Of a DNA stretch of 64,000 nt, positions 5,290 to 62,979 are shown one piece after another (the first letter of the stretch is position 1; every line of letters starts with the position of its first letter). Origin of the DNA: a virus; the IMG/VR virus record IMGVR_UViG_3300042007_000202, positions 44,672-108,671 of that record. The stretch is one strand, 5' to 3'. The position numbers were made by a program, and so were the translations under genes. The notes beneath the pieces were generated by a model, which saw only the letters and a program-made list of their open reading frames with translations, was not told where the DNA came from and made no database searches.

Positions 5290-5338
5290 GTGACACGAGA
5301 TTTGCATGCGCGGTCGCACGGTGATAACTTGATGTCTC
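5290..5338 (+). promoter_or_regulatory. Promoter/operator cassette (GTGACAC...TTGCAT-17-TAACTT...ATGTCTC)
   Basis: Sigma70-type -35/-10 hexamers with a 17 bp spacer, bracketed by inverted half-sites; upstream of the 5386 operon. Confidence 0.75.
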
Positions 5339-5385
5339 GCAAGGGGGCTGCGGCCCCCACCACCACCGACCCGGAGGAGCCAGCC

Positions 5386-5808
5386 ATGGCCAGCCCGATC
5401 GCCTCATGGAACGTCACCTACACCGACGCCGAAGGCAAGCGCCACCGCATCACCGGCCTGCCCGACTGGGACACCGCCCGGGAGGAGGCCGCCCGGCTGC
5501 GCGCCACCGGCGCCCGATGGGTCAAGACCCACCCCCACTTCGCCACCCTCCAGGACACCATCGCCTACGCCAGCCGGAACCTGATCCCCAAGGCCGAGGC
5601 GGAGCCGCTGTTCATCACCGAACTGGACGGCCCCACCTTCGCGTCGGCGGAGGAGCTGGACGACTACCGCTGGCGCAACGCCTCCGACGACCGCTCCGAC
5701 TACGACGCGGAGATGGCGTACGAGCGCCACCTGGAGACCAACGACCAGTACCGGTGGGAGCACGAGCAGGACGAACTCCGCGCCGCCGCCTTCGGCTACG
5801 GCTTCTGA
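5386..5808 (+). CDS. Hypothetical early protein
   Basis: GGAGGAG RBS, ATG 5386, typical GC3 codon bias. Confidence 0.7.
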   Translation: MASPIASWNVTYTDAEGKRHRITGLPDWDTAREEAARLRATGARWVKTHPHFATLQDTIAYASRNLIPKAEAEPLFITELDGPTFASAEELDDYRWRNASDDRSDYDAEMAYERHLETNDQYRWEHEQDELRAAAFGYGF

Positions 5809-5869
5809 CCCACCCCCGGGGGCGGCCACCCGGCCGCCCCTCCCCGTCCGCGCAGATAGAGAGGCCGCC

Positions 5870-6280
5870 ATGCCCCAGCGGCGCACCCCCGCGCCCCCGT
5901 CCACCCGCCCGCTCCGCACCGACGACGAACTCCACATCCTGGCCCTGGGTGCTCTGGCCGAACGCCACGGCGCCGGGCCCGACGAGGCCCTGGCCCAGCA
6001 GTACGCCACCGAGTACGACGAGATCATGCGCGCCTTCCGGGGCGCCCGCCGCCAGCGCATGGCGCACCTGTACCCGAACGTCGCCGCGCAGCACCTGGAC
6101 GGCCAGGTGCTCACCGTGCTCAAAGACGACCTGGACGGCGAGAGCACGGCGGACCTGGTCATCACGCTGGTCCATCACCTGGAGATGCTGACCAAGAGCA
6201 CCACCTACGACGACGGACACGCCTTCAAGGTGGCCGCTCTCTGGCGCGAGCTGGCCTTCCGGGGCATCACCCTCACCTGA
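5870..6280 (+). CDS. Hypothetical protein
   Basis: GAGAGG RBS; in operon. Confidence 0.65.
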   Translation: MPQRRTPAPPSTRPLRTDDELHILALGALAERHGAGPDEALAQQYATEYDEIMRAFRGARRQRMAHLYPNVAAQHLDGQVLTVLKDDLDGESTADLVITLVHHLEMLTKSTTYDDGHAFKVAALWRELAFRGITLT

Positions 6281-6305
6281 TCCACGCAGATAGGACACAC
6301 ACCGC

Positions 6306-6806
6306 ATGAGTAACGCAACCTTCCGGCTCGTCTCCGAGCTGCCCGAGGTGGACAACCCCCTCATCAGCAAGCCGGACCACATCGTCAACCCGTTCGCCGG
6401 GCAGGCGCGCAACCCCGGCCACCGCTTCACGCTCCTGCGGGGCGAGGCGCGCTGGGCGTGGGCGCACGTGCTGCGCGCCGTGGGCGGCTGGACCGTGATC
6501 TCCGCTGGCGTCCTGTCCACGTCGGTTTTCCCGACCGCCGACGAGGCCGGGGAGTACCTGGTCCGCCAGTTCCTGGGCGCCAACGGCGACGGCTACGACC
6601 ACCTCTCCCACGAGGCGTACGCCCAGCGGGGGCGCATCGCCCACATCCGGGACGAGGCCGAGCCCCACACCACGTACTGCGGGGAGGCCGCTACCACCCC
6701 GGCGGTGTTCGACCTGGGCGAGCCCAACCACGTGGAGCAGCACTGCATCAAGTGCGACCGGTCCTACCGCGCCACGCACTACGGCCGGATGGCGGTGACC
6801 CACTGA
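6306..6806 (+). CDS. Hypothetical protein with a C-terminal H..C..CxxC Zn motif
   Basis: IAHIRD...TYCGE...HCIKC. Confidence 0.65.
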   Translation: MSNATFRLVSELPEVDNPLISKPDHIVNPFAGQARNPGHRFTLLRGEARWAWAHVLRAVGGWTVISAGVLSTSVFPTADEAGEYLVRQFLGANGDGYDHLSHEAYAQRGRIAHIRDEAEPHTTYCGEAATTPAVFDLGEPNHVEQHCIKCDRSYRATHYGRMAVTH

Positions 6807-7012
6807 TGGCGCTCGGCAAGCCCGAGGGGTGGGCGTGCGCGCACAACCCCTGGCACGCGTACGCCCCGGCCAGCCCGACCCGGTGCCGCCACTGCGGCGA
6901 GGAGCGCTCAGCGGCCGACGCCTTGGTGTCGCTGGTGGCCGGGTGGGAGGGCTGGTCGGAGCAGATGGCGCGGGACCTGGTGGAGCTGCACGCCGAGCAG
7001 GTGAAGGCGTGA
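6806..7012 (+). CDS. Small Cys/His protein
   Basis: TGATG coupling; CAHNPWH...CRHC. Confidence 0.55.
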   Translation: MALGKPEGWACAHNPWHAYAPASPTRCRHCGEERSAADALVSLVAGWEGWSEQMARDLVELHAEQVKA

Positions 7013-7029
7013 GGGGGCCGCGCGCCACC

Positions 7030-7344
7030 ATGAGCAACGACGGCGAGATGCGCGTCGATCTGAAGGTGGCGGTGCGCGCCAGCCGGGATGAGCTGGCGAT
7101 CGTGCTGATCCGGGGGAAGGCGCCGTACCACGTGGCCGGAGAAGACCGCGAGGAGCTGTCGGCCGCCGCCGCAGAAAGGGCGATCAAGCAATTCCTGTGC
7201 CAGTGGGGCACGGAGGTGGAGGGCTGGTCGGACCACATGGAGGAAGGCCAGCGGGATGAGTGGCTGGAGTGGGCGCGGCGCCAGGTGGACCGCGCCTACC
7301 CGGCCCTGGCCCCCGGCGGGAGCGACGGCCCGCCCGGCAGCTGA
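7030..7344 (+). CDS. Hypothetical protein
   Basis: ATG 7030; ends before a hairpin. Confidence 0.6.
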   Translation: MSNDGEMRVDLKVAVRASRDELAIVLIRGKAPYHVAGEDREELSAAAAERAIKQFLCQWGTEVEGWSDHMEEGQRDEWLEWARRQVDRAYPALAPGGSDGPPGS

Positions 7345-7356
7345 GCCGCCCGCGAC

Positions 7357-7404
7357 GCGCGAAGGCGCCCCCGGGTGCCAACGGGGCCGGGGGCGCCTTC
7401 GCGC
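7357..7404. terminator. Stem-loop between convergent genes
   Basis: GCGCGAAGGCGCCCCCGG...CCGGGGGCGCCTTCGCGC inverted repeat. Confidence 0.65.
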
Positions 7405-20347: not shown

Positions 20348-20608
20348 TCAGTCCCCCAGGTACAGCGAGAGACTGAAGACGCCGTACAGGCTGGCGATGT
20401 GCGTCAGCAGCGGCGCCAGGGCCTCCTTGGTCGGGTGTTCGACGCCCAGGGCGGGCGCGCCGTTGCTCATCTCGGTTCGGTAGATCTGCGCGGATGAGGC
20501 TTCGGTGGCCCTGGCCAGGGCTGCCTCCGTCTCGGCCAGGCACTTGTCCCGCTCGTCGGCGCGGGCGAACGCCGCGATCAGCGTCCAGGGGCGGGTGGGT
20601 TGGGTCAT
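20348..20608 (-). CDS. Hypothetical protein
   Basis: GGAGGAG RBS; preceded by a half promoter cassette (20631). Confidence 0.55.
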   Translation of the reverse strand: MTQPTRPWTLIAAFARADERDKCLAETEAALARATEASSAQIYRTEMSNGAPALGVEHPTKEALAPLLTHIASLYGVFSLSLYLGD

Positions 20609-20707
20609 GGGTGGTCTCCTCCGCATTGGGGAGACACGAGGTTAGCGTACGCAGCGCGCGTCCACCCGGCCGCCCGCCCGGCCGGGCGGGCGGCCGGGTG
20701 TCGGCGT

Positions 20708-27310: not shown

Positions 27311-27586
27311 TCAGGGGGTGTCGGAGGGAGGGGTCGTGCAGGCTCGCACGAGCACCTTCCAGACCTTCACGGCGGACGCCGGGGCCGGGGCCTCGGCGCC
27401 GCTCTCCCAGAGCGCCAGGCGCCACGTGGGGACGTTGCAGGCGCGGGCCATGTCATCCACCGACCAGCCCGACAGCGTCCGCAGCCGGGTGGCCGTGCCG
27501 TCGCGGAGGGCCTGGAGCGCCAGCCGGGCGCGGTCGTTGTCGGTCAGGCGCGGCGGCGGGAAACGGTCGTCGGCCATGGGCGTCAT
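27311..27586 (-). CDS. XRE-like HTH protein
   Basis: LRTLSGWSVDDMARACNVPTWRLALWESG. Confidence 0.7.
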   Translation of the reverse strand: MTPMADDRFPPPRLTDNDRARLALQALRDGTATRLRTLSGWSVDDMARACNVPTWRLALWESGAEAPAPASAVKVWKVLVRACTTPPSDTP

Positions 27587-32258: not shown

Positions 32259-32359
32259 CGGGGCCTCACTCTCTGTGTCAGTGGTACCCATGATTATCGG
32301 TCGCGCATGCCGTGTGCAAGCTGCATGTCACATTACCGCCCGGCTTTGTGCTCAGCCGG

Positions 32360-34185: not shown

Positions 34186-34234
34186 GAGACACGAGATTAG
34201 CATTGGGTGGACGCGTATGCAAACCTAATGTCTC
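34186..34234 (-). promoter_or_regulatory. Promoter/operator cassette
   Basis: Reverse complement reads GAGACATtaggtTTGCAT-17-TAATCTcGTGTCTC. Confidence 0.75.
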
Positions 34235-38791: not shown

Positions 38792-39100
38792 TCAGGCGCC
38801 GTCCCGGGCGGTGAGCTTGCGCAGGCTGGCGGCGATGTCCGCGAGGGACAGCGCGATGGACACCTGGGCCAGGGGGGCGACGTTCTGGGAGTCGACCCCG
38901 GCCAGGAGGACGCCGGTGTACTCGGGTCCGGGGAGGTTGACCCGGCGGCCGAGTTCGGCGTTGATGGCGGACACGGCGTCCAGCGGCTCCTCCGGGATGC
39001 CCGTGGGCTGGCCGGAGGCCTTCCGCCTTTGCGTGTCGTCGAAGCTGCTCATTTGGCTTGAACCCTCGCTTTGGTCGATCCTATCGATGCCGTGTGTCAT
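38792..39100 (-). CDS. Hypothetical protein (start may be internal, MSSFDD)
   Basis: Behind a degenerate cassette at 39094-39142. Confidence 0.45.
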   Translation of the reverse strand: MTHGIDRIDQSEGSSQMSSFDDTQRRKASGQPTGIPEEPLDAVSAINAELGRRVNLPGPEYTGVLLAGVDSQNVAPLAQVSIALSLADIAASLRKLTARDGA

Positions 39101-39235
39101 GACGTTATCACACGTGATCGTTGTACACGTGCTTTGTGTTGCCCGGCCGGGCGGGCGGGCGGGAGTACCCCCGGCCGGGCGGCCGGGCGGGTCTCGCCGG
39201 TGCGTGCGGGCCGGAGGGCTGCCCCGGCCTGCGCG

Positions 39236-41194: not shown

Positions 41195-41275
41195 ATCCGC
41201 GCGGATTGACGCAACACCAATATTACACACACATGCTGCGTGCGCAAATCCCGTGTCTCTTGTATCTGCGTGGAT
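41195..41275 (-). promoter_or_regulatory. Promoter cassette flanked on both sides by 12-bp palindromes
   Basis: ATCCGCGCGGAT-4-[cassette 41211-41259]-4-ATCTGCGTGGAT. Confidence 0.7.
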
Positions 41276-41780: not shown

Positions 41781-41852
41781 CCTGATCACCTTCTTCCCAT
41801 GGTCTATGAGACACCAGTATTGCACGCGCGTGATGCGTCAGCCATCGTGCAC

Positions 41853-47780: not shown

Positions 47781-47829
47781 GAGACATGACGTTATCACCG
47801 GGGATTGGTGTGCGCAAATGTTGTGTCAC
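47781..47829 (-). promoter_or_regulatory. Promoter/operator cassette
   Basis: Reverse complement reads GTGACACaacatTTGCGC-17-TAACGTcATGTCTC. Confidence 0.75.
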
Positions 47830-50082: not shown

Positions 50083-50472
50083 ATGACGATCTCTGTCGAC
50101 TTCGACGTCCCCATCCACGACTACACCCGGGGCTGGCAGGACGGCTCCATCTACGGGGATGAGACACCCGGCGCCTTCCAGGCCCTGCGCGACCTCATGG
50201 CCGTCGACGCCGTCTTCATCCACACCACTCGCCCCGCCGGGCCGGTAGCCGCATGGCTGGCCGAACGCGGCGGCTTCGCCACCGTCGTCGATGACGGCAC
50301 GCTGGACCTGGAGTTCTGGAACCGGCGCGGCATCCTGCTGGTGACCAACCGCAAGTACCCCGCCCACGCCTACATCGACGACCGCGCCGTTCCCTTCACG
50401 GGCGACTGGCAGGAGGCCATCCGGCGGGCGGCGGAGTTCCTGCCGGTACTGCGGGCGGAGGGGGACGGCTGA
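50083..50472 (+). CDS. HAD-superfamily phosphatase-like protein
   Basis: ISVDFD motif I; K.PA.AYIDDRA motif III/IV. Confidence 0.7.
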   Translation: MTISVDFDVPIHDYTRGWQDGSIYGDETPGAFQALRDLMAVDAVFIHTTRPAGPVAAWLAERGGFATVVDDGTLDLEFWNRRGILLVTNRKYPAHAYIDDRAVPFTGDWQEAIRRAAEFLPVLRAEGDG

Positions 50473-50717
50473 TGCGCCCCGAGGCCGCTGACGTACTAGC
50501 CAGGCTCCGCCGGTCCATCCTCCGGGGAGACTGGCCGGTCGGCTGCCGCGCGCCCGCCCTGGCCGAGCTGGTGAGCGTGCACGGCCTCAACCGGTCACAG
50601 GCGTCCCTGGTCCTGAGCGCGCTCGCGAAGGAGGGGCTGATCGTCCGGGCGCGCGGCATCGGCCCCACCGTGGTGTACGAGCCTGAGCAGCCCTCGAAGG
50701 ACCGGCCGGAGCCGTGA
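50472..50717 (+). CDS. GntR-type wHTH protein
   Basis: LRRSIL.GDWPVG.R.P...EL....G.NR......L..LAKEGLI..ARG.G..V. Confidence 0.7.
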   Translation: MRPEAADVLARLRRSILRGDWPVGCRAPALAELVSVHGLNRSQASLVLSALAKEGLIVRARGIGPTVVYEPEQPSKDRPEP

Positions 50718-50854
50718 ATGCGCAGCCGCCCCCGCCGTGCCGCTCACGCGACGCACGGCGCCCCCAGGGCCGTGAACCCCGGGGGCCACTGCAAATCTCA
50801 TGTCACCCGGCCGGGGGGGGGCCCGGGGGGGCGCCCCCCCCGGGGGGGGCACGG

Positions 50855-51079
50855 TCAGGCGTCGCCGTCTTCGTCCGTGACGCCCTGCGCCTCCGCCCAC
50901 TCGCAGCACGCCTTGGCGAAGAGCGCGGGGCCCTGCGCCGCCTGCTCGGAGCGGAACACCTCCGGCGCCGCGCCCAGGGTCTCCACGACCACCACGCCGC
51001 CGGGCAGCAGGTAGAAGTCGGTGTCGCTGAACGCCTCGGTGTGGAAGACGTCGACGCTGATCTGCGAGTAGCGGTCCAT
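50855..51079 (-). CDS. Small acidic cassette gene
   Basis: GAGGAG RBS, conserved leader hairpin, half cassette at 51124-51141. Confidence 0.6.
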   Translation of the reverse strand: MDRYSQISVDVFHTEAFSDTDFYLLPGGVVVVETLGAAPEVFRSEQAAQGPALFAKACCEWAEAQGVTDEDGDA

Positions 51080-51188
51080 GGTGATCTCCTCGTCCGTGGT
51101 GGGGGGCTCCGCGCCCCCGAAGAATGCGAATCTCGTGTCACCCGGCCGGGCGGGCGGCCGGGGGGCCGCCCGCCCGGGGGTCAGGGGG

Positions 51189-51725
51189 TCAGTGCTTGCA
51201 CCCGGCGGCGCACCAGCCGCCCGCCTTGCGGACGGCGCGCTCGTCCACCAGTCGGGCCACCGTGTACGCGGTGCCCGTGTTCACGCAGATCAGGGCGTAC
51301 TGACCGTCGCGGCGCCCGACCTGCGCCGCCTGGCGCGGCTTGTCGTACAGCAGCTCCCAGCCCTTGGCGGCCGACTCGCCCAGGCCCGCCCGGCGCGCGG
51401 CCTTGCGCGGCGCCTTGCGGGGGGCGGCCTCCACGCGGGCGGCCGTCTTGGCGGCCAGCGCGGCCAGCGCGGCGGCCACGCCGGTCAGGGCCTCCGCGCG
51501 CTCCTCGGCCGCGAGAACGGCCTCCACCTCGGCCTGGTCGGCCACCGGCAGCGCCTCGGCCACGGCGGTGTGGCTCACCCGGCCGGTCGCCTGAGTGGTG
51601 ACCAGGACCACCAGGCCCGTGGCGGCGGCGCGGCGGTCGGCCTCGCGCTTGGCGGCGGCCAGGTTGGCGTAGGACTTGGCGGCGAACTCGGCGGCGGCGG
51701 AGACGGTGTAGCGGGTGGCGGCCAT
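51189..51725 (-). CDS. WELLYDKP-domain protein A
   Basis: AAGGAG RBS; Ala-rich N-terminus plus the conserved C-terminal domain. Confidence 0.8.
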   Translation of the reverse strand: MAATRYTVSAAAEFAAKSYANLAAAKREADRRAAATGLVVLVTTQATGRVSHTAVAEALPVADQAEVEAVLAAEERAEALTGVAAALAALAAKTAARVEAAPRKAPRKAARRAGLGESAAKGWELLYDKPRQAAQVGRRDGQYALICVNTGTAYTVARLVDERAVRKAGGWCAAGCKH

Positions 51726-51774
51726 GGTGGGCTCCTTCGGGTGGGAGGTGGTGGGGGGCCGTTTGCCCTCCGGT

Positions 51775-51840
51775 GTGACACCAGTATTGCATACGCCACT
51801 CAGGGAATGCAAATCTCGTGTCTCATCAATCCACGGGGAT
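51775..51840 (-). promoter_or_regulatory. Promoter cassette plus 12-bp palindrome
   Basis: GTGACAC...GTGTCTC (50 bp), 4 bp, ATCCACGGGGAT. Confidence 0.75.
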
Positions 51841-51928
51841 AGGCGGAGCGGGGGGCGCGGACAGGAGCCGTGAGTGCCGGTGGCCCCGCGCGAACTCCTC
51901 AGGCGGGAACTCAGGGGCCCCCGCACAG

Positions 51929-51970
51929 CCGAATGCCCCCGCCCGGCCGGAGCCGGGCGGGGGCATTCGG
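51929..51970 (-). terminator. Hairpin after protein B
   Basis: CCGAATGCCCCCGCCCGGC/GCCGGGCGGGGGCATTCGG. Confidence 0.7.
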
Positions 51971-51974
51971 GAGG

Positions 51975-52469
51975 TCAGTGCTTGCAGTCGGGGCACCAGC
52001 CACCGGCGCTCCGGGCGGCGCGCTCATCCGTCAGGCGGGACAGGCGGTGGACCGTCAGGTGCTCGACGCAGATCAGGGCGTACTGGCCGTCGCGGCGGCC
52101 GACCTGGCACCCCTGGCGCGGCTTGTCGTACAGCAGCTCCCAGCCGGAGCCGACGACCGTCTCGCCCTGAGCGGCGCGGAGCTGGCGGGGGGCGGTCTTC
52201 GTCTCAGCGGCGGCCTCGGCCTCGGCCTGCGCCTCAGCGGCGGCGGCGCAGTGCTTGCAGAGCTTCTTGCCTCCGACCGCGACCGCCAGCTTGCGGGCCT
52301 CCTCCAGCACCCCGGCCGCCGTGGTGGCCTTGGCCCCCCGCTCCACGAAGCGGTACGAGCGGGACAGAGCCGGGCAGGCGCTCTTGGCGTAGTCGAACTC
52401 GCTGCCCTCGGTGCGGATGTTCAGGCCGTCGATGTGGACCGTGCCGCTGTTGTACTTGATGGTGAACAT
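51975..52469 (-). CDS. WELLYDKP-domain protein B
   Basis: AGGAG RBS; N-terminal H..C..CKHC plus the conserved C-terminal domain. Confidence 0.8.
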   Translation of the reverse strand: MFTIKYNSGTVHIDGLNIRTEGSEFDYAKSACPALSRSYRFVERGAKATTAAGVLEEARKLAVAVGGKKLCKHCAAAAEAQAEAEAAAETKTAPRQLRAAQGETVVGSGWELLYDKPRQGCQVGRRDGQYALICVEHLTVHRLSRLTDERAARSAGGWCPDCKH

Positions 52470-52515
52470 CCGGTGCTCCTGAGTTCGTCGGTGGTGGGGG
52501 GCCCTTGCCCCCCGT

Positions 52516-52565
52516 GTGACACCAGTATTGCATACATCGCTCACGGAGTGCAAATGTCGTGTCAC
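52516..52565 (-). promoter_or_regulatory. Promoter cassette
   Basis: GTGACAC...GTGTCAC 50 bp. Confidence 0.75.
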
Positions 52566-52606
52566 CCGGCCGGGCGGGCGGGTGGCCGCCCGCCCGGCCG
52601 GTCCGC

Positions 52607-52996
52607 TCAGTAGCGGCGCGGGGGGCGGACCCTGGCGGCGCCGCTGGCCCGGCGCGCGGCTCGCCGGGCGCGGGCCTCCTCCAGTTCCCTGGCCTGGAAG
52701 GCGCGGCCCGCCTCGATCACCCCGGCGGGCGCCTTGACGATCTCGCCGCCGTTCCGGCCGACCTCCGCCAGGGCGCTCAGCGCGCTCCAGTGGCCGCTCC
52801 GGCGGCCGTAGCGGTCGACGGTGACGATGGGCGCCACTCCCGCGCCCCTGCTGGCGAGGAGTTCCCGGTAGAGCTCCGAGCCCTGCTCGCAGTAGCGGCC
52901 GGTCTCCCCGGAGGTGGAGCAGACCCGGCAGGCGGCGGCGTGCTCGCGGTGGGCGACCTCGGCGGGGTTGAGGACCTCGTGGGTGTTGGCGGCCAT
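52607..52996 (-). CDS. Cassette gene (H..C..C..C motif, no WELLYDKP domain)
   Basis: AAGGAG RBS; HAAACRVC...YC. Confidence 0.65.
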   Translation of the reverse strand: MAANTHEVLNPAEVAHREHAAACRVCSTSGETGRYCEQGSELYRELLASRGAGVAPIVTVDRYGRRSGHWSALSALAEVGRNGGEIVKAPAGVIEAGRAFQARELEEARARRAARRASGAARVRPPRRY

Positions 52997-53038
52997 CGCG
53001 GGCTCCTTGGGGTGGTGGGGGGCCGCTTGCCCCCCGGT

Positions 53039-53104
53039 GTGACACCAGTATTGCATACGCCGTTCAAGCAATGCAAATCTCGTGTCTCATCAATCCACGG
53101 GGAT
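53039..53104 (-). promoter_or_regulatory. Promoter cassette plus 12-bp palindrome
   Basis: Near-identical to the 51775 cassette. Confidence 0.75.
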
Positions 53105-53254
53105 GCAGACGCCCGCGCCCCCGGCGGGCGGAACCATGAGTGCGGCCGGTCCGCGTGAACTCCTCACGCGGATGCTCAGCGACCCAAGCGACCGACTTCC
53201 CGACATGGCTCTGCCGCCGCCCGGCCGGGCGGCGGCAGAGCGCGCGGTGAGGGC

Positions 53255-53734
53255 TCAGCCCTCGCTGTGGGCGCAGCCCTCGCACCAGGCCGCCTTGCCC
53301 GCCCGGCGCAGCTCGCGCTCATCGACCAGCTTCTCCAGCGGCCGGGCGTACTTGTGCTCGGTGCAGATCAGCGCGTAGCTCTTGTCGCGGCGCCCGACCT
53401 GGGTGGCCGTGCGCGGCTTGTCGTACAGCAGCTCCCAGCCGGTCACGGCCGACTGGCCGTCCGTCAGGCGCCGCGCCCGGTCGGTGTTCATGATCCGCTC
53501 CCGGTCCGCCTCGGCCGCCTCCTGGGCGGCGTCGAAGACCTCCTGGAGGGCCGCGCACGCCTTGCAGATGGTGTTCGCCTGGAGCTGGCGGACGACCGGC
53601 GCCAGCGTGAACTCCGCGCCGCACAGGTTGCCGGTGCCGACCCAGAGGTGGGTGACCTTGGCGGTGCGGGAGGAGACCGTCAGGGCGGTGTAGGTGGACG
53701 GGGCGATGACGGCGGAAGCGGTCTTGCGGGCCAT
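53255..53734 (-). CDS. WELLYDKP-domain protein D
   Basis: GAGGAG RBS; N-terminal THL..LCG..ICKAC plus the conserved C-terminal domain. Confidence 0.8.
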   Translation of the reverse strand: MARKTASAVIAPSTYTALTVSSRTAKVTHLWVGTGNLCGAEFTLAPVVRQLQANTICKACAALQEVFDAAQEAAEADRERIMNTDRARRLTDGQSAVTGWELLYDKPRTATQVGRRDKSYALICTEHKYARPLEKLVDERELRRAGKAAWCEGCAHSEG

Positions 53735-53782
53735 GGCGGGCTCCTCGGGTCGGAGGGGGTGGGGGGCCGTTTGCCCCCCGGT

Positions 53783-53848
53783 GTGACATCAGTATTGCAT
53801 ACGCCGTTCGGGGAACGCAAATCTCATGTCTCATCAATCTGCGGGGAT
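53783..53848 (-). promoter_or_regulatory. Promoter cassette plus 12-bp palindrome
   Basis: GTGACAT...ATGTCTC, 4 bp, ATCTGCGGGGAT. Confidence 0.75.
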
Positions 53849-53969
53849 TGAACTCGCGGACCTCTGGAGCCGCCCGGCCGGGCGGGCGTCGCTGAGTCGC
53901 CCGTGAGCGGCACCGGGTGCGGGGCTGCGCACTCATCAGTCCTGGGGCGCCCTCCGGTCGCTCAGGGGT

Positions 53970-54018
53970 GAGACACGGGGCATGCGCACACCACCATTGA
54001 TAGATAGCCTGATGTCAC
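53970..54018 (+). promoter_or_regulatory. Promoter cassette (divergent arm)
   Basis: GAGACAC...TAGCCT.ATGTCAC 49 bp. Confidence 0.6.
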
Positions 54019-54041
54019 ATGGCACCGACGAGAGGACCCCC

Positions 54042-54419
54042 ATGAACACGCGCTACCCGCGCGCCGTCGACCTGGCGCAGATCCCCCACTGCTCCGTCTG
54101 CGGCGAGACGAACCCCATCACCGACGAAGAGGGCGGCACCGCATGCTGCGGGCGGCGGGAGTGCGGCGGCGTGGGGCCCGAGGCCCAGGACGTGTGCTGC
54201 CAGGCACTCCAGGACCGCGTGGACCACGAGTCCGCGCACGGAACGCCCGCCTCCCCGCTGTCGGCCGCGCGGCCGGTGGCGGCAGCCCCCCGGCGAGCGC
54301 GAACCCGATCCACGCGGATCAAAGAGACACGAGACTTGCTGACGCTGAGTGACGTATGCAAAAGTGATGTCACACCGGGGGACGGACAGCCCCCCACCAC
54401 CGAGCCGAAGGAGGCCCCG
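54042..54419 (+). CDS. Cys-rich cassette ORF without a stop codon, reading in frame into protein F
   Basis: GAGGA RBS, ATG 54042; CSVC...CC...C...CC. Confidence 0.5.
54308..54373 (+). promoter_or_regulatory. 12-bp palindrome plus promoter cassette
   Basis: ATCCACGCGGAT-4-GAGACAC...ATGTCAC. Confidence 0.7.
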
Positions 54420-55073
54420 ATGGCCCTCTCCACCACCGCCGCCACCAGCGCCGTCTGCCGCAACCTCTTCAAGGACGGCCCGAACTCCTTCGAGCCCGTC
54501 GGCGGAACCTTCGGCACGGACCGCGAGATCTACGAGAGCCTGGCCAAGGCATACCTCAAGGACAAGACCGACCTGAGCGGCAGCACGATCGAGGCCGCCG
54601 ACTGGGACGAGGTGTTCGCCACCTTCCAGCCCGACCCGGCCCCCGCCGCCGAGGCCGCCCCGCAGCTCGCCGCCGGTTCCCGCGTCACCACCACCGGCCA
54701 GCCCGCGCTCACCCCGACCGGTTACGTCGTCTCGGTCCAGTACGACCCCCCGTTCGCCCACCTGGCGGCGTCCGGCGGCGCGGACCACCTCGTCCGCGAC
54801 CTGGCCCCGGCCCCCGCCGAAGCGGCCACCCCGGCCCCGGCCCCGGCGCCCGCCCCCAAGGGCGCCAGGAAGCCCCTGGGGGACGCCAGCGCGCCCGGCT
54901 GGGAGCTGCTGTACGACAAGCCCAAGGCGGGCGCCGAGGTGGGGCGCCGGTACGTGGACGGCAAGCCCCAGTTCTCCCTGATCTGCAAGGCCCACGGTCA
55001 CGTGCACAAGCTGGACCGCCTGAGCGATGAGGGCAAGGTCCGCAAGGCCGGTGGCTGGTGCCCCTCCTGCTGA
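54420..55073 (+). CDS. WELLYDKP-domain protein F
   Basis: AAGGAGG RBS; unique N-terminal domains, PA linker, conserved C-terminal domain. Confidence 0.8.
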   Translation: MALSTTAATSAVCRNLFKDGPNSFEPVGGTFGTDREIYESLAKAYLKDKTDLSGSTIEAADWDEVFATFQPDPAPAAEAAPQLAAGSRVTTTGQPALTPTGYVVSVQYDPPFAHLAASGGADHLVRDLAPAPAEAATPAPAPAPAPKGARKPLGDASAPGWELLYDKPKAGAEVGRRYVDGKPQFSLICKAHGHVHKLDRLSDEGKVRKAGGWCPSC

Positions 55074-55109
55074 ACCCCCGGGCGGCCGGGCGGCCACCCG
55101 CCCGGCCGT

Positions 55110-55159
55110 GTGACACGAGATTTGCATTCGGCTCACGGCTGATGCTAATCTCGTGTCAC
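55110..55159 (+). promoter_or_regulatory. Promoter cassette (most symmetric copy)
   Basis: GTGACACGAGATTTGCA-16-TGCTAATCTCGTGTCAC, a 17-bp inverted repeat with one mismatch. Confidence 0.8.
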
Positions 55160-55202
55160 GCGGGGGCGGCGCCCCCACCACCGGCGAACTCAGGAGCCCG
55201 CG

Positions 55203-55682
55203 ATGGCCGTCATCAAGACCGACCCCCAGACCACCTACGACGGCTACCTGCTCATCGCGGCCACCAACGGCCGGGTCTGGCACCTCAGCAACCACGACGA
55301 CGAAGCCCTGTGCCGCGCGAAGGTCGACCGCTACATCGAACTGGAAGAGGCCGCAGAACTCAGCGGTATCTGCGCCCGCTGCTCCCGCATCCTGGACCGG
55401 CGCGGCCCGTACGTGCCCTACGCGGAGCGTGTGGCCGCCGGGCAGACCGAGCCCACCGGCCCGCGCCCGGCCCTGGGCCCGTCCAGTGTGGACGGCTGGG
55501 AGCTGCTGTACGACAAGCCCAGGGCGGGCTACGAGATCGGCCGCCGCTACTGGGGCGACAAGCCCGAGTACGCCCTGATCTGCAAGGCCCACCGCTACGC
55601 CCTCGGGATCGGGTCGCGGCTCAAGTCCGAGGGCGTGCACCGCCGCGCGGGCAACTGGTGCCCCGGCTGCAACAGCCGCTGA
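55203..55682 (+). CDS. WELLYDKP-domain protein G
   Basis: AGGAG RBS; N-terminal WHL..LC..ICARC plus the conserved C-terminal domain. Confidence 0.8.
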   Translation: MAVIKTDPQTTYDGYLLIAATNGRVWHLSNHDDEALCRAKVDRYIELEEAAELSGICARCSRILDRRGPYVPYAERVAAGQTEPTGPRPALGPSSVDGWELLYDKPRAGYEIGRRYWGDKPEYALICKAHRYALGIGSRLKSEGVHRRAGNWCPGCNSR

Positions 55683-55728
55683 ACTCCCGGCCGGGCGGGC
55701 GGCTGCGCTTCCATCCCCGCGAATTGAT

Positions 55729-55777
55729 GTGACACGAGGTTTGCAAACGGTGAACCGTGGTGCTAATCTGGTGTCAC
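55729..55777 (+). promoter_or_regulatory. Promoter cassette
   Basis: GTGACACgaggtTTGCAA-17-TAATCTgGTGTCAC. Confidence 0.8.
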
Positions 55778-55824
55778 ACCAGGGGGTGCCGCCCCCACCA
55801 CGAACCACCCACAAGGAGCCCGCC

Positions 55825-56175
55825 ATGATGAACTTCCCCGGCTACACCCTGCTCGGCACCATCAACCTCACCGACGAGGAGTACGACTCCGAGCGCCAGC
55901 TGTCGGTCTACCGCAACGCGAACGGCGCGGTGTTCACCCTCGACGCGGGCGGCTGCATCTGCTGCTGCGACCTCTACGACGGCGTCACCGTCTCGGACCT
56001 GGTGGAGTTCACCGGCTCTGCGGTGGAGCTGGCGGAGCTGCTGGTGGCGGAGGTCACTGCGATCGGGTGGCCCGTCGACCCCGAGGGCCGCATGGAGGTC
56101 GAGGAGGAGCTGCGGAACATCATGCGCGGCGTGGCGGGCGTGCCCGTGGCGGCGCCGCTGGCGCTCCCGCGCTGA
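55825..56175 (+). CDS. Acidic cassette gene (GCxCC motif)
   Basis: AAGGAG RBS. Confidence 0.65.
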   Translation: MMNFPGYTLLGTINLTDEEYDSERQLSVYRNANGAVFTLDAGGCICCCDLYDGVTVSDLVEFTGSAVELAELLVAEVTAIGWPVDPEGRMEVEEELRNIMRGVAGVPVAAPLALPR

Positions 56176-57775: not shown

Positions 57776-58885
57776 CTACTCCTCCGCCGTATGTCCGGGG
57801 TTGTACCGGATGTTCCTGTTGCCTCGCCTGGGCTTCATGGGGATCTCCGCCCCCAGCAGCGCCAGCATCTCCACCGCAGCCTTCTTGTCGACCTCCTCAC
57901 CGTCCCGCCCGTACGTGATCTTCATGGGCCCGTAGACGCCCGGCTTGGGCCGCCCGACCATGGCCGCGTACATCGCCTGATCCTTCTCCAGCGGGCTGAT
58001 CTGCGCCCGGAGTTCGGCGTACTTCTCCGCCGCGAACGCGATCTCCGGGGCGGTGTGGACCTGGAGCGCGGAGCTGTCGCCCGGCTTGGCGTCCGGGCCG
58101 AAGCACTCCCTGAGCCAGGCGCAGCCGTCGCACACCCACGACAGCCCCGGGCCCCGGTGGCCGCGCGGCGCGGCGTCCGGCGAGGCCGACAGCCCCACCA
58201 GCCACCGCACCCGCTCCTCAAGGGCCAGCTCCGCGTCCTCGTCGAACGGCTCGATGTGGACGGCGACCTCACCGTTGGCGCGGTCCATGTAGAGCCACGC
58301 CACCCACGCCACCGGGAAGCCCCACTGGCGCAGCGCCGTGGCGTACCCGCGCACCTGCACCCGGTGCTCCTCGTGCACCCCGTCGTGCTCGACTCCGCCC
58401 AGCAAGTACGCCCCCAGCGTCTTGAGGTCGATCACCCCGCCGCCCATCACCTGCGTGTAGAGGTCCGTGGTCCCGTCGACCACCTGCTGGCCGGTGACCT
58501 CACCGGTGGCCGGGTCGTAGAGGGGGACGGTGAGGCGGACCGCCATCTCCACCTCGCCGTCCGCCAGCTCGGCCGCGTAGTACGGCAGGTACTTCTCGTG
58601 GATCCACGTCCCGATGAGCGCCTGCCGCGCCTCGGTGTCATAGGCCAGCTCGGGGTCGGACGGCGGCACCCCGGCCAGCTTGTACGCCGACTCGCGCGGG
58701 CACCCGCCCAGGTCCGACATGGACAGCTTCCACATGCGGTCCGCGCGCTTGGACTGGTTGTCGCGATTGGCCTTCTTGAAGGCGCGCCCGGCCGCCCGCT
58801 CCAGCCCCTTGCGCAGGGCCGGGATGGCCGCCACCGGCAACGGCGCCGAAGGGGCCATCCCCTGGGGCTCCAGCGCGGCCGTCAC
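57776..58885 (-). CDS. Cas4/RecB-like PD-(D/E)XK exonuclease
   Basis: S.LGGCPR, GTWIH, GTTD...VIDLKT, QVRGY and C.GCAW..EC motifs. Confidence 0.75.
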   Translation of the reverse strand: MTAALEPQGMAPSAPLPVAAIPALRKGLERAAGRAFKKANRDNQSKRADRMWKLSMSDLGGCPRESAYKLAGVPPSDPELAYDTEARQALIGTWIHEKYLPYYAAELADGEVEMAVRLTVPLYDPATGEVTGQQVVDGTTDLYTQVMGGGVIDLKTLGAYLLGGVEHDGVHEEHRVQVRGYATALRQWGFPVAWVAWLYMDRANGEVAVHIEPFDEDAELALEERVRWLVGLSASPDAAPRGHRGPGLSWVCDGCAWLRECFGPDAKPGDSSALQVHTAPEIAFAAEKYAELRAQISPLEKDQAMYAAMVGRPKPGVYGPMKITYGRDGEEVDKKAAVEMLALLGAEIPMKPRRGNRNIRYNPGHTAEE

Positions 58886-60159
58886 TGCTCACCGCCCTGG
58901 AGGTCGGCGCAGGCGCCCGCGTGGACCCCGGTGGCGATCACGTGGTCCGTGAGGCACCCGCACGGCAGCCGGTCGTCATCGGCCCGGCCGCCCGGCCGCC
59001 CGCCCGACCGGGCGGCCGGGCGGGCGGGCGGGCTCGCCTGCGTCTTGCTGGCGGCCTTGCGCGTCTTTTCCCCGGCCCGGGGCCCGGCCGCCTGCGCCGT
59101 GCCGCCCTGCGGGCTGCTGGCCTTCTTGGCGGAGGCCTTCTTGCGCGGCTTCTTCTCCGGCTCCGGCTTCTCCTCCGGCTCCGGGGGCGCGGCCTGCTCC
59201 TGCGCCGCCGCGCCGTTCCCGGGGGGCTGGGGCTCCTCCGCCGCGTCCAGCCCGCGCAGAGCTTCCAGGGTGCACGGGCCCGCGTCCGGGTCGGCCGGGG
59301 CCACGGTGCCCGCGCCCTGCTCCCTGGCGAGCGCGTCAGCCGCCCGCATCGCGTCCACCAGCACATGCCGCACGCTCACCGCGCTGGTCTCGTCCGTGGC
59401 GTAGTCCAGCAGCATCGCGTCGCGGCACTCCATGAACAGCTCCCGCAGCAGGTTCAGCCGCACCGTGCCGTTGGGCTGCCGCCCGGTCAGCGCCACCAGC
59501 CGGAGCACCTGCAACACGTGAGCGCGGCGCTCCTCCCGCACCTCCACCACCTGGCTCGCGTTCTGCGGGTCGTCGGCGTGCTCGCGCAGGTCAGTCCCCA
59601 TCCCCAGCAGCACCTCCGGGCAGAACCAGTTGACCGCGCGCGTGGTCACGCGGGCCACCAGCATGTCCTCCGGCATCCTGGTCCAGGCGTCGCAGAACTC
59701 GTATCCGGGGTCGGTGTAGCCCCGCTCGATGGCTTCCTGGATGGTGAAGCTGACCTCGTGCTTCTTGCCGTCGGCCATCTCCAGCAGCGCCACCGCGTGG
59801 AAGCGGTCCCGCTCCACGAAGGTGATCCGGTGCCCGGCCCGGCGCGCCAGCGCCCGTACCAGCTTGGCCCGCCGCCCGACGTCACCGTCCTTTGTGGCGT
59901 ACAGCTCATCCCACGCAACCGCCAGGGGGACATCCAGCCCCCGCGCCCGGAACATGAGCGCCAGGATGTCAGCGGGCTTGCCGTGCAGGTGGGGCGGCAT
60001 GAACAGCTCCGCCTTCGACAGCATCTCCGCCATCTGGAGCATCTGCGTGAAATCGACGGGAACGTCCGTGCCGGGCAGGCCGTGACTGGACACTTCCACG
60101 AGTGGCGTGGATGCTGTCTCCGTCGGATGGTTCTGGGGAGTCAATGGCTTGGTCCTCAC
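58882..60159 (-). CDS. RecT-like single-strand annealing protein
   Basis: P.HL.GKPADIL...VSFTIQEA..RG...W...PEDML.AR...RA...CPEVL.G; paired with the exonuclease. Confidence 0.7.
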   Translation of the reverse strand: MRTKPLTPQNHPTETASTPLVEVSSHGLPGTDVPVDFTQMLQMAEMLSKAELFMPPHLHGKPADILALMFRARGLDVPLAVAWDELYATKDGDVGRRAKLVRALARRAGHRITFVERDRFHAVALLEMADGKKHEVSFTIQEAIERGYTDPGYEFCDAWTRMPEDMLVARVTTRAVNWFCPEVLLGMGTDLREHADDPQNASQVVEVREERRAHVLQVLRLVALTGRQPNGTVRLNLLRELFMECRDAMLLDYATDETSAVSVRHVLVDAMRAADALAREQGAGTVAPADPDAGPCTLEALRGLDAAEEPQPPGNGAAAQEQAAPPEPEEKPEPEKKPRKKASAKKASSPQGGTAQAAGPRAGEKTRKAASKTQASPPARPAARSGGRPGGRADDDRLPCGCLTDHVIATGVHAGACADLQGGEQ

Positions 60160-60213
60160 GATCTTCTTCGACGCCGTGTAGACGGCCCCCGGTGCGCGCC
60201 GGGGGCCGTCGTC

Positions 60214-60894
60214 TTACGGCCTTTCCTTGCGGCGCTTGTCGGCCGCCGCAGCCTCAGCAGCCTCGGCGTTCGCCTCCTGGTGCATCCGCCACTTTTCCAG
60301 GGCCTCCTCCACCGTCCTGTAGAGGGCGGGCCGCGCGGCCATCCGCCTGCGCACCCACTCGATGTCCGGCGAAAGCCCGAACTCCGCCGTCCGCCGCCGC
60401 ACCCACTCGTCGATCTTGGCGTCGTCCAGGCGGCCGGTCTGCTCACCGAACTCGATGACGCGTTCCTCGCTCCAGCCGTACGTCTTCGGCTCGATCTTCA
60501 CATCAGCGGGGATGAAAGCCTTCCGCTGGCGCATGAAGTAGACCGCGTTCTTCTTGAGCCCGTACACGTACGAGCACAGCCACGACGACAGGTACACCCT
60601 CGGCGTGACGCTGTAGCGGGTCTTGGCCAGCGTCTCCGCCTTGGCCAGCGAGCCGTCCGGCGGCGGCCCGATGGGGCGGAAGTCGGAGTCCAGGCGGTCG
60701 GCGTCCACGCCGAAGCGCTGGGCTCTCCTGGGGTCCCAGCCGAACCGGTCGGCTGCGATCACGATGTCCGGCCCGAGCATCTGACCCTGGTCCAGGAGCC
60801 GGTACAGGTGACCACGCGACAGGTGCAGCCCCTTCGCCAGGTCCATGTGCGACCAGTACTGCCTGGTCAGCCCTTCTTTCTCGTCCTGAATCAT
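60214..60894 (-). CDS. Tandem-HTH DNA-binding protein (candidate regulator)
   Basis: Two repeats, Y.S...LA..L.L....LY...GQ..PDIVI..FGW and YLS....YG......M.....IPADV.I...YGW. Confidence 0.6.
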   Translation of the reverse strand: MIQDEKEGLTRQYWSHMDLAKGLHLSRGHLYRLLDQGQMLGPDIVIAADRFGWDPRRAQRFGVDADRLDSDFRPIGPPPDGSLAKAETLAKTRYSVTPRVYLSSWLCSYVYGLKKNAVYFMRQRKAFIPADVKIEPKTYGWSEERVIEFGEQTGRLDDAKIDEWVRRRTAEFGLSPDIEWVRRRMAARPALYRTVEEALEKWRMHQEANAEAAEAAAADKRRKERP

Positions 60895-60981
60895 GGCTAT
60901 GCAAATCTCCTGTCTCGGATACACGAAGTTTACGCGTGGGAGCCGGGGCTGCTGGGCCCCACGCGCCCGCCCGGCCGGTAC

Positions 60982-61479
60982 CTACAGGTAGATCCCCAGG
61001 TACCGGTCCTTGTCCCATTCCGGCTCGTACGGGCGGCACTCCGGGCAGAAGTCCTCCCCCGGCAGCGCCGCCTCGGTGCAGTGGGAGCACTGCACCGGCA
61101 CGGGCGTGTCGCACATTTCGGCCTGGTGGGGCGCCCCGCACGGCTCACCCCCGTCCGCGCAGTCCGGGCACACCGGGTTCCCGGCGTCGTCGGCCGCGTG
61201 CGCGTGCGTCATCTCGTACTCCACGGGCATGGCCCGTCCGAGCGTGACCACCACGCGCGCCAGCTTCACCGGCCGGGGCAGCTCCACCAGGAGCAGGCCG
61301 CAGTCGCACTGCGCGCCCTCGTTCTCCCAGTCCCAGTCCCGGTCCACGCGGATGGCGCGCTGCCCCAGGGCCTCCACCAGCGTCTGGACGGTGGCGCCCT
61401 GTGCGATGAGCTGGGCCAGCTCCGCGTGCGACCCCGGCCGCACGCGCTGCGCCGTCACGTCGTCTGCCGGAAGCTTCAT
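60982..61479 (-). CDS. Cys-rich hypothetical protein
   Basis: Behind the cassette at 61514-61562; several CxxC. Confidence 0.55.
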   Translation of the reverse strand: MKLPADDVTAQRVRPGSHAELAQLIAQGATVQTLVEALGQRAIRVDRDWDWENEGAQCDCGLLLVELPRPVKLARVVVTLGRAMPVEYEMTHAHAADDAGNPVCPDCADGGEPCGAPHQAEMCDTPVPVQCSHCTEAALPGEDFCPECRPYEPEWDKDRYLGIYL

Positions 61480-61577
61480 GGCTTGGTCCCTTCCGTGTGC
61501 CCTCTACTGCCGTGTGACACGAGATTATCACGCGCGGCATGCGTGCGCATAGGTTGTGAAACCCGGGTGACACGAAA

Positions 61578-61617
61578 TGAGCCCCCAGTCGCGAAGGCCG
61601 ACGCGACTGGGGGCTCA
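61578..61617 (-). terminator. Hairpin
   Basis: TGAGCCCCCAGTCGCG/CGCGACTGGGGGCTCA. Confidence 0.7.
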
Positions 61618-61676
61618 AGGGCCGCCCGGCGGCAGCGGGAACTGCGACGCGCACCCCCGCCGGACGGAGCCCTACG

Positions 61677-61985
61677 CTATCCGCTCTCGGGCCGCAGGGC
61701 GGCCACCAGCGAGCGGATGTGCGCCTTCACGTCGGCCAGCTCCGCGAACGACGCGATCGGCGGGGGCGGCGCCTCGCCCCTGGGGACCTCGGGCACCTCG
61801 CGGTAGAGGTGCCAGGTGTGGTGCTCCCGGTACCACCACGGCGCGAACTCGCCCCTGCTGGCCCGTGGTTTGGCCGCCCACTGGATCACCCCCCAGCGCC
61901 GCTGGTCACCGGTGGCGGACAGCTCGAACCGCTGCCCCGCCCCAGCCCGCCGGGCCTCGATCTCGATCTCCTGCTCCTCAGGCAC
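61677..61985 (-). CDS. Hypothetical protein
   Basis: Coupling. Confidence 0.5.
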   Translation of the reverse strand: MPEEQEIEIEARRAGAGQRFELSATGDQRRWGVIQWAAKPRASRGEFAPWWYREHHTWHLYREVPEVPRGEAPPPPIASFAELADVKAHIRSLVAALRPESG

Positions 61986-62499
61986 CGCTCACGTCCTCCG
62001 CCCGGTCGCTCACCTGGTCCATGCGCGCCTGGGTGGCCTGGGCCAGCGCCCGCTGGATCTGCTCCACCACCGCGCGGTGCCCGCCCGGAACCGGCGGCGC
62101 CACGGCGTGAGACTCCCACACCGGGAGCAGCTCCATCGCCCGGCCGACCGCCGTCATGGCCATGGTCAGCGTCCCCAGCAGCACCGTGTCCGGCGGCAGG
62201 AACTCCGCCCTGCGGCCGTGCAGGGCGTAGTCCCTGGCGCTGGTCCACTCCTCGGTCCCGTTGGCGATGTCCGCCACGATGGCCGCCGCCGCCAATCCAC
62301 GCAGATAGCCGACGAGCATGAACTCCACGCTCCCCGGCCGGGCGTACGGCTGCGGCGTGCCCAGGTCCGCCAGCGACTCCAGCGCTGACAGCACCAGCGT
62401 GTACGCCGTGGTCGTGGGCTGGTCCACCAGCTCCAGCGCCAGCGCGTGGCCGGGCCCCGACTTGAGCGGGCGCGAGTCGTTCCAGTCCAGCATGATCAT
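61978..62499 (-). CDS. Hypothetical protein
   Basis: GAGG RBS. Confidence 0.5.
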   Translation of the reverse strand: MIMLDWNDSRPLKSGPGHALALELVDQPTTTAYTLVLSALESLADLGTPQPYARPGSVEFMLVGYLRGLAAAAIVADIANGTEEWTSARDYALHGRRAEFLPPDTVLLGTLTMAMTAVGRAMELLPVWESHAVAPPVPGGHRAVVEQIQRALAQATQARMDQVSDRAEDVSGA

Positions 62500-62504
62500 T
62501 CCTC

Positions 62505-62816
62505 TCAGTTCCCCCGCCCGGCCGGGCGGGCGGGCGGCCGGGCGGACTCGTGCCAAGGCGCCTCGATGAGCACGGCGGCGAGCTGGCTCGCCGCCGCCCG
62601 CATCCAGACGCGGGCCAGCTCCGGGCGGCCGTTGGACCAGTAGACGGCCGCCTTGTCCATGGCGACGGCCGCGCCGTACTCGACGACCGCCCGCTCCGCC
62701 TGGAGCTGGCTGGCGCCGTCGGCGCTCAGGCGCAGGGCCTGGGCGTGCGTGGAACACAGCACCGCCCACTGCTGGGCGGGGCTCCGGGGGGAGGGGCGGG
62801 CCAGGCTGATGGCCAT
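62505..62816 (-). CDS. Hypothetical protein
   Basis: AAGGAG RBS; behind the cassette at 62840-62889. Confidence 0.55.
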   Translation of the reverse strand: MAISLARPSPRSPAQQWAVLCSTHAQALRLSADGASQLQAERAVVEYGAAVAMDKAAVYWSNGRPELARVWMRAAASQLAAVLIEAPWHESARPPARPAGRGN

Positions 62817-62839
62817 TCGTGGTCTCCTTCGATTGCCGT

Positions 62840-62979
62840 GTGACACGACATTATCTGTCGGTCGCGCGTGTGCGCAAATCTCATGTCACGCGCGCCGGTC
62901 GGGCGCCCGGCCGCCCGGCCGCCCGGCCGTGCGACATGAGATTTGCAAGGGGCGCCCTGGTGCACTAATGTCGTGTCTC
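62840..62979. promoter_or_regulatory. Back-to-back divergent promoter cassettes separated by the GC-only motif
   Basis: 62840-62889 (-) and 62931-62979 (+). Confidence 0.7.

Follow-up and report, generated by a model that had tools for sequence, protein, structure and literature searches.

The phage genome and its repeated cassette

The window analysed here is a stretch of 64,000 nucleotides (bases 44,672-108,671) that forms the final 64 kb of one 108,671-bp virus record, IMGVR_UViG_3300042007_000202, and the subject of this work is a cassette of 49 or 50 bp, made of two 17-bp arms in inverted orientation around a centre of 15-16 bp, which is repeated along it. The full genome of the record (G000) has a G+C content of 72% and 150 genes, as called with a method based on G+C at third codon positions (GC3). 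The virion and packaging proteins that it encodes include a large terminase, a portal, a MuF/protease/Nudix head protein, a major capsid protein, and a major tail protein, and the nearest named phage to the terminase is Saccharomonospora phage PIS 136, at 47% identity. No integrated state of the phage was seen, and the element is a phage genome.

Two relatives share this cassette. The first one (G001) is a 111,261-bp IMG/VR contig found through a search with the capsid protein (89% capsid identity), which is syntenic with G000 and matches 116 of its 150 proteins, with orthologues that are roughly 47-91% identical. The second one (G5) is a 106,095-bp contig of Streptomyces andamanensis PCU 347 (NZ_JBHSDP010000011.1), reached by an exact-word scan of bacterial genomes, with homologues of 113 of the 150 proteins and a median identity of 57%. 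This contig was assembled separately from the chromosome of the cultured isolate, and could represent an extrachromosomal prophage or a phage that the strain carries. Scanned with a weight matrix, G000 contains 22 cassettes, G001 26, and G5 21. When the full-architecture pattern was applied to the whole 8.9-Mb S. andamanensis assembly, all 14 matches fell on the 106-kb phage-like contig and none in the remaining ~8.8 Mb, so the cassette belongs to the phage and not to the host's own promoters. The host of this lineage is very probably Streptomyces.

The cassette is absent from relatives with 50% capsid identity and from Saccharomonospora phage PIS 136. Across IMG/VR, the exact word GACACGAGATTTGCA gave single chance matches only, TGCAATACTGGTGTCAC gave G001 plus one lone match without a cassette, and GAGACAGGAGATTTGCA gave G001 plus chance matches. 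The latter word, searched across JGI metagenomes, found only G001 among cassette-bearing DNA, and TGCAATACTGGTGTCAC, searched across GTDB genomes, returned chance matches and the one leading to the S. andamanensis contig.

Copies of the cassette in the window

A pattern fixing only the two ends, G.GACAY-N35/36-RTGTC.C, has 13 matches in the window, each of them 49 or 50 bp long, where Markov shuffles predict 0.18, and 17 matches over all 108,671 bp of G000. In coordinates of the whole genome, members of the family were recovered at 49-101, 2144, 3021, 4664, 38643, 39661, and 49961. The first-pass annotation, made from the letters of the window, had listed 14 full copies; all of them are present at its coordinates, and the ends-only pattern recovers 13. 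A two-arm weight matrix, applied with a cut-off of at least 12 bits, gave no match of at least 5 bits in three shuffled genomes. The matrix of 56 strong copies bears out the consensus proposed earlier, with G-W-G-A-C-A-Y-G-R-G-R-T-T-T-G-C-R as the left arm and T-G-(C/A)-(T/A)-A-(A/T)-Y-N-T-S-R-T-G-T-C-W-C as the right arm, and also the constant length, since 39 of these copies measure 49 bp and 17 measure 50 bp.

The full cassette at 5290..5338 (plus strand, 59 bits) lies divergent from the major capsid gene and is followed by a G5/C5 leader hairpin, a ribosome site, and an ATG at about 5386, and the one at 34186..34234 (minus strand, 62 bits) stands before the gene 33232-34092(-). Two more copies on the minus strand are found at 41211..41259 (37 bits), before 40087-41145(-), with a degenerate right end GTGTTGC and a 12-bp palindrome 4 bp upstream, and at 47781..47829 (54 bits), before 46868-47749(-).

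Further copies lie in a divergent array of small cassette-headed genes (50855-56175), corresponding to 102.8-109.8 kb of G001. Its leftward side carries three full cassettes of the TGCAATACT type, at 51775..51824 (66 bits, before 51189-51725), 52516..52565 (62 bits, before 51975-52469), and 53039..53088 (66 bits, before 52607-~53000), as well as the full cassette at 53783..53832 (65 bits, before 53255-53734), all of them and their genes on the minus strand. The last one stands back to back with a weaker cassette on the plus strand (53970..54018, 40 bits), which precedes a rightward gene starting at about 54042. Three other plus-strand copies follow: 54324..54373 (49 bits), with a leader hairpin and a ribosome site before an ATG at about 54420, where the gene caller fused two genes; 55110..55159, the top-scoring cassette (67 bits), whose arms are one base short of perfect symmetry, as had been claimed, and which precedes 55203-55682(+); and 55729..55777 (61 bits), before a gene ending at 56175(+). 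Near the right end of the window, the full cassettes at 62840..62889 (minus strand, 56 bits, before 62505-62816(-)) and 62931..62979 (plus strand, 47 bits, before 63058-63327(+)) form a second back-to-back pair. The gene content of the array differs between genomes: the G001 genes at 102831, 103188, 104005, and 106263 have no counterpart in G000, and some array proteins have only a terminal segment in common.

The four copies described earlier as degenerate proved to be of different kinds. Two of them are cassettes, namely 39094..39142 (minus strand, 18 bits), which ends in GCAACAC / ATGACAC and keeps its orthologous place in G001 and G5, and 61514..61562 (minus strand, 32 bits, before 60982-61479(-)), which has no left box. 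The one at 41808 is a right (-10) arm alone, and the one at 32283 falls under the matrix threshold, with a counterpart of 20 bits at the orthologous place in G001 (position 18818).

A probable promoter core of the extended -10 type

The inner part of the cassette is asymmetric and consists of TTGCRN, a spacer of 17-18 bp, and TGnTAAYNT. In the 50-mers, TTGCRN occupies positions 13-18 and TAAYNT positions 37-42, with the TG two bases ahead of the -10, which leaves a spacer of 18 bp (17 bp in the 49-mers), in agreement with the spacing given in the first-pass annotation. Three of its positions are nearly invariant among the 56 strong copies: the G of TGn is present in 55, and A (-11) and T (-7) in all 56. 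The start of transcription predicted from the sequence is the A contained in the terminal GTGTC(A/T)C.

The asymmetric part of the weight matrix gives each cassette a direction, and for G000 and G001 the next gene runs in this direction at 48 of 48 sites, with the start codon usually 23-70 nt downstream. In G5 the two agree at 19 of 21 sites, and the remaining two are followed by an uncalled gene with a ribosome site and an ATG. Regarding the type of gap, 40 cassettes lie between genes of the same strand, 16 lie in 10 divergent gaps, and none was found in the 17 convergent gaps of at least 45 bp; where a gene pair is divergent, two cassettes stand back to back, as in 53783/53970 and 62840/62931. 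A footprint over 19 orthologous pairs, with proteins 50-90% identical, left G1, GACA, TTTG, T-A---T, TGTC, and the final C unchanged in 17-19 pairs, with centre positions identical in only 7-14. The orientation, the distance to the start codon, the presence in divergent but not in those convergent gaps, and the invariant TG, A, and T of the extended -10 all argue for a promoter, and this reading of the cassette is well supported by comparison of the genomes. As for its sequence, the core is the kind of signal that the RNA polymerase carrying the principal sigma factor of the host would read.

The same symmetry might allow a two-way promoter, whose bottom strand would offer TTAGCA or TTATCA, 17-18 bp, and TGCAAATCT, so that short upstream-directed transcripts would be functional. 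The extended -10 of the bottom strand (TGcAAATCT) has a single departure, an A at -12, which it shares with the top strand of the TGCAATACT type, and that type heads four genes in G000 and eight in G001. However, the asymmetry between the two arms (TTTGC versus TWAKC, TAAY versus AAAT) is kept and fits the direction of the gene in 48 of 48 sites, divergent pairs are served by two cassettes instead of one, and the upstream side is usually occupied by a GC hairpin or by the end of the previous gene, all of which makes transcription in both directions distinctly unlikely.

The centre of the cassette had been called variable, and this stands for orthologous pairs; the TGCAATACT sub-family, in exchange, also retains ..GAAC.. 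centrally. In the window, the centres at 51792-51807, 53056-53071, and 53800-53815 keep TTC..(C/T)GAAC(G/C)G, with GAAC preceding the terminal TGTC by 17-18 bp, a distance that recalls promoters read by extracytoplasmic function (ECF) sigma factors. This conservation may be the mere result of recent duplication.

The end boxes as a putative operator

The outer 13 bp of both arms are one and the same box, GWGACAYGRGRTT, in inverted orientation, so that the core is framed by a copy at about -48 to -36 and another at about -11 to +2. The form of this box, G-W-GACA-Y / R-TGTC-W-C, is stable between orthologous copies, whereas the centre drifts. A search with the core only (TTGC, gap, TGnWAnnnT), leaving the flanks free, gave 40 sites in the three genomes, of which 37 are flanked by G.GACA as well as TGTC.C and three by a single box. 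Covariation from arm to arm is absent, as real arm pairs show no greater complementarity at the variable positions than shuffled ones (p = 0.44, 0.50, and 0.79). Boxes under sequence selection that show no hairpin pairing point to recognition by sequence, which implies a sequence-specific protein as their binder.

A hairpin or cruciform was rejected on the latter result, the shuffled arm pairings being as complementary as the real ones. As a terminator, processing site, or cruciform, an RNA or DNA hairpin would fit the folding of the single strand (-17.9 kcal/mol versus -10.1 for shuffles), which is explained by the symmetry of the cassette itself. A fixed T/T clash is kept at the -35/-10 position, the convergent gaps of at least 45 bp have no cassette, and no match to a known RNA family of Rfam was found in the window, which makes this kind of explanation barely credible.

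The lack of covariation also bears on recombination, which the first-pass annotation had kept as its alternative. The cassettes could mainly be seams for gene shuffling, either by homologous exchange, in the manner of the promoter-early stem-loop (PeSL) units, described as promoter plus stem-loop (PMC2839356), or by site-specific recombination at folded sites, as in the attC of integrons. In its favour, the cassette is kept while the gene behind it differs between genomes at 5290, 34186, 62931, and several places of the G001 array, and about a third of the cassettes have a terminator-like hairpin ahead. Against it, genome-specific genes are not significantly enriched behind cassettes (12 of 54, versus 63 of 392 elsewhere, p = 0.25), the orientation of the cassette tracks the downstream gene and not the upstream one, no target-site duplications were seen, and arms without covariation argue against a folded substrate. 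Recombination sites thus found no support, and we consider a main role in shuffling quite improbable.

Not all promoters have both boxes. The left one is missing at 61514, and the right one at the copies 3021 and 39657 of the G000 genome, and these one-armed forms are retained at orthologous places in the three genomes, so the boxes must be dispensable at some promoters. The half copies listed earlier were likewise found, one being a right arm (20631) and three being left arms (50790, 51125, and 60900), all of them on the minus strand. The lone right (-10) arm at 20631..20647(-) is located 24 nt ahead of the ATG of 20348-20608(-), and the one at 41808..41824(-), TGCAATACTGGTGTCTC, precedes 41370-41789(-) and is kept together with its leader in G001 and G5. 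Regarding the left arms, the one at 50790..50806(-) lies in a convergent gap and could be a relic or antisense, and the one at 51125..51141(-), with its -10 arm missing, is fused to the leader hairpin and ribosome site of 50855-51079(-), a gene without homologue in the relatives; this fusion looks like a deletion relic. The third one belongs to an everted pair at 60900..60934(-), kept in the three genomes and located 5 nt upstream of the ATG of 60214-60894(-), in which GCGTAAACTTCGTGTATC, similar to a right arm, lies directly against the left arm GAGACAGGAGATTTGCA. Conserved one-armed variants, together with isolated arms, indicate that the clamping of both ends by one protein, as first proposed, is not obligatory.

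We consider it fairly probable, from the comparison of the copies, that the cassette is the standard promoter of the phage with a built-in two-box operator for a phage regulator, probably a repressor. According to this model, the cassette would serve a small lineage of 106-111-kb Streptomyces phages, in which the principal-sigma RNA polymerase of the host would read TTGCRN and the extended -10 and start at the A of GTGTC(A/T)C, while one phage-encoded DNA-binding protein would recognise the boxes and switch about 20 promoters together. This protein would most likely be a repressor or shut-off factor, in view of a core that looks strong on its own and of a downstream box lying over both the -10 and the start site.

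Several points weigh against this model. The boxes are about 43 bp apart from centre to centre, which is far for one small dimer, the proteins proposed to bind them are candidates, the sequence would be compatible with a repressor or with an activator, and the persistence of one-armed forms, as mentioned above, speaks for dispensable boxes. Furthermore, no promoter was found in 47-64 kb by a scan for the E. coli-type consensus, as the hexamers agree with TTGACA or TATAAT at only three of six positions each. Actinobacterial promoters follow a looser consensus (TTG..., TANNNT, and TGn), and it is on this one that the putative assignment to the principal sigma factor relies. The operator remains the best available inference for the boxes.

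Alternatively, the whole 50 bp, including the end boxes, could be contacted by the transcription machinery, that is, by a minor host sigma factor or by a polymerase altered by a small phage protein, with no separate regulator. The coupling of boxes and core in 37 of 40 sites would agree with it, as would the hexamers, which are not classical, the position of the upstream box, which is the place expected for the alpha C-terminal domain or for an upstream sigma-4 partner, and that of the downstream box, which spans the discriminator and the start site. However, contacts of the polymerase need no mirror symmetry of 13 bp, promoters without one box persist in three genomes, and neither sigma-70 region 2 or 4 nor a WhiB domain was detected in G000 or G001. 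In addition, the S. andamanensis chromosome has no such sites, and hence no host regulon uses them. Recognition by the machinery itself is, in our view, unlikely.

Candidate regulators and genes behind the cassettes

Pfam gave no family above threshold for any of the 20 proteins tested from behind the cassettes, which leaves the regulon without a functional name; such a lack is usual for early phage genes. Of the four helix-turn-helix proteins that the first-pass annotation put forward as possible regulators, the one of the HTH_3 type (26886-27161) is missing from both relatives and is therefore unlikely to bind a conserved box. The other three are conserved in all three genomes. They comprise a 91-aa protein with a weak HTH_31/HTH_3 domain (27311..27586, minus strand; 85% identity in G001 and 63% in G5), an 81-aa GntR-type winged-helix protein (50472..50717, plus strand; 76% and 68%, respectively), and a 226-aa protein (60214..60894, minus strand).

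The 226-aa protein, a putative arm-binding regulator, carries two HTH_17/AlpA-like repeats in tandem, followed by a long helix at the C-terminus. Besides itself, its family counts 28 homologues, some of them named 'AlpA' or 'helix-turn-helix' by their sources, and 23 of the 29 members have HTH_17 matches below threshold. The internal duplication has an E-value of 5e-6, and the predicted structure, with a mean predicted local distance difference test (pLDDT) score of 69, has two helix-helix-strand-strand-helix units followed by the long helix. A fold search with this model gave no significant match, the best one being the MerR-type BmrR (E about 0.8). One homologue is also found on a 109,842-bp contig named Streptomyces longwoodensis, and no cassette was found in the neighbourhood of a distant homologue in another Streptomyces genome.

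The gene heads an operon (57776-60894) that also comprises the genes of a RecT-like annealing protein (58882-60093) and of a Cas4/RecB-like exonuclease (57776-58885), and the everted pair before its start codon hints at self-control. That this protein is the box binder, its paired AlpA/excisionase-like winged-helix domains holding both boxes and bending the 50 bp between them while it autoregulates the operon of the 226-aa, RecT-like, and exonuclease genes through the everted pair, is rather unlikely.

Leaders and flanking elements

The cassettes are followed by leaders of two types. The first type, of about 45 nt, has a 5' hairpin formed by a G-run and a C-run, located 3-16 nt past the end of 29 of the 69 cassettes of the three genomes, then ACCAC, and then a ribosome site AGGAGCCC at about 45 nt from the cassette. 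These leaders begin with AC(C)GGGGGG-N4-8-CCCCCC-ACCAC, as in 5339-5390, 51725-51775, 55160-55205, and 55778-55825 of the window. The cassettes without this hairpin mostly have the second type, a short leader of 23-36 nt starting with ACGGCA. The hairpin at the 5' end may protect the mRNA end or constitute a further recognition site.

On the other side, a very stable GC hairpin lies just upstream of 22 of 61 cassettes, versus 33 of 400 random 50-mers, and a 12-bp palindrome, RTCYNCGNRGAY, is found exactly 4 bp upstream of the left box in 15 of 69. The 12-bp palindrome ATCYNCGNRGAT occurs 39, 59, and 39 times in the three genomes, versus 0.1-0.4 expected, with 25 of the 39 occurrences in G000 falling within the non-coding 12% of the genome, and in 15 cassettes it is the element placed exactly 4 bp ahead of the left box; examples in the window are 5266, 41195, 41264, 51829, 53093, 53837, and 54308. 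Judging from this distribution, it looks like a second, separate operator system.

Comparison with known systems

The conserved inverted repeats (CIRs) of phiC31 are compact 17-bp palindromes bound by the phage repressor, about 18 of which are dispersed in intergenic regions. The cassette resembles them as a set of dispersed operator-like repeats in a Streptomyces phage, through which one phage protein would control many transcription units. However, its boxes are asymmetric, of 13 bp, and about 43 bp from each other, enclosing a promoter, so the analogy drawn in the first-pass annotation holds for the dispersed intergenic repeats and is otherwise loose, because the CIRs are compact palindromes.

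A second comparison is offered by the PeSL cassettes of T4-type phages, for which a role in shuffling has been shown (PMC2839356). Both systems are repeated before small genes without annotated function in a variable region, with each gene being its own transcription unit. PeSL units join a strong host-type promoter to a stem-loop, a design that the cassette may share through the hairpins that follow 29 of 69 copies and precede 22 of 61. Contrary to the cassette, PeSL units have no mirror-image boxes around the promoter, and the shuffling role is unsupported here by the genes behind the cassettes (see above). The attC of integrons, a folded site placed 3' of its gene cassette, is not matched either: the arms do not covary, and both orientation and spacing follow the downstream gene.

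The closest resemblance is with ESAS (extended start-associated sequences) of cluster K mycobacteriophages, which Pope et al. described in 2011 as inverted repeats of 17 bp, imperfect and placed around a spacer that varies, located upstream of a 13-bp start-associated sequence (SAS), finding little support for a hairpin (PMC3203893). In the 2024 study of Adephagia, seven intergenic motifs of 46-47 bp were reported, in which SigA-like hexamers are spaced by 17-18 bp and the inverted repeat measures 15 bp, and the authors suggested an unidentified regulator distinct from the immunity repressor (PMC11373665). A 2025 survey still calls the function of ESAS unverified (PMC12699233).

This analogy, also drawn in the first-pass annotation, is apt, with agreement in size, orientation, inverted repeats, hexamer spacing, and non-covarying arms. 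Like the ESAS of Adephagia and TM4, the cassette is an intergenic unit of ~46-50 bp, present in at least seven copies in one orientation, with SigA-like -35 and -10 hexamers 17-18 bp apart inside imperfect inverted repeats of 15-17 bp, arms that are not hairpin-like, and a conserved ribosome-site sequence downstream (AGGAGCCC here, GGGATAGGAGCCC in cluster K). The differences are found in sequence and register. The arms are unrelated (GTGACACGAGATTTGCA here, TGTTGACATGCATACAG in Adephagia), and so are in both respects the sites read from the Adephagia genome (GTGTTGACATGCATACAG...CTGTATGCATGTCAACA), where the left arm has the -35 TTGACA at its outer end and the right arm extends beyond the start site. 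In the cassette, by contrast, the hexamers are at the inner ends of the arms, with the extra GWGACA boxes outside them, and the centre measures 15-16 bp, versus 4-14 bp in ESAS (the published spacer being 4-13 or 12-14 bp). The full 13-bp SAS GGGATAGGAGCCC is absent from the ribosome sites, which have AGGAGCCC in a subset of leaders and GAGGGACCAAGCC or plain GGAGG in others. Almost no proteins are shared with Adephagia, only two weak tblastn matches linking the two proteomes, and the host is very probably Streptomyces, unlike that of cluster K.

What the inverted repeats around ESAS-type promoters do has been an unsettled question since 2011, with the papers of 2024 and 2025 still calling the regulator unknown, and the present lineage provides an independent version of them in which the parts are more clearly separated: its boxes lie beyond the hexamers, each genome has about 20 copies, and one-armed variants occur naturally. 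Since a relative is present, as a 106-kb contig of its own, in the cultured S. andamanensis PCU 347, direct experimental access is available, and the cassettes are also candidates for compact, insulated promoter parts in the engineering of Streptomyces. The cassette is confirmed, by its repetition and conservation in three genomes, as a real element and as a variant of the poorly understood motif described in cluster K mycobacteriophages, one that would work like ESAS while being no member of that group by sequence or descent.

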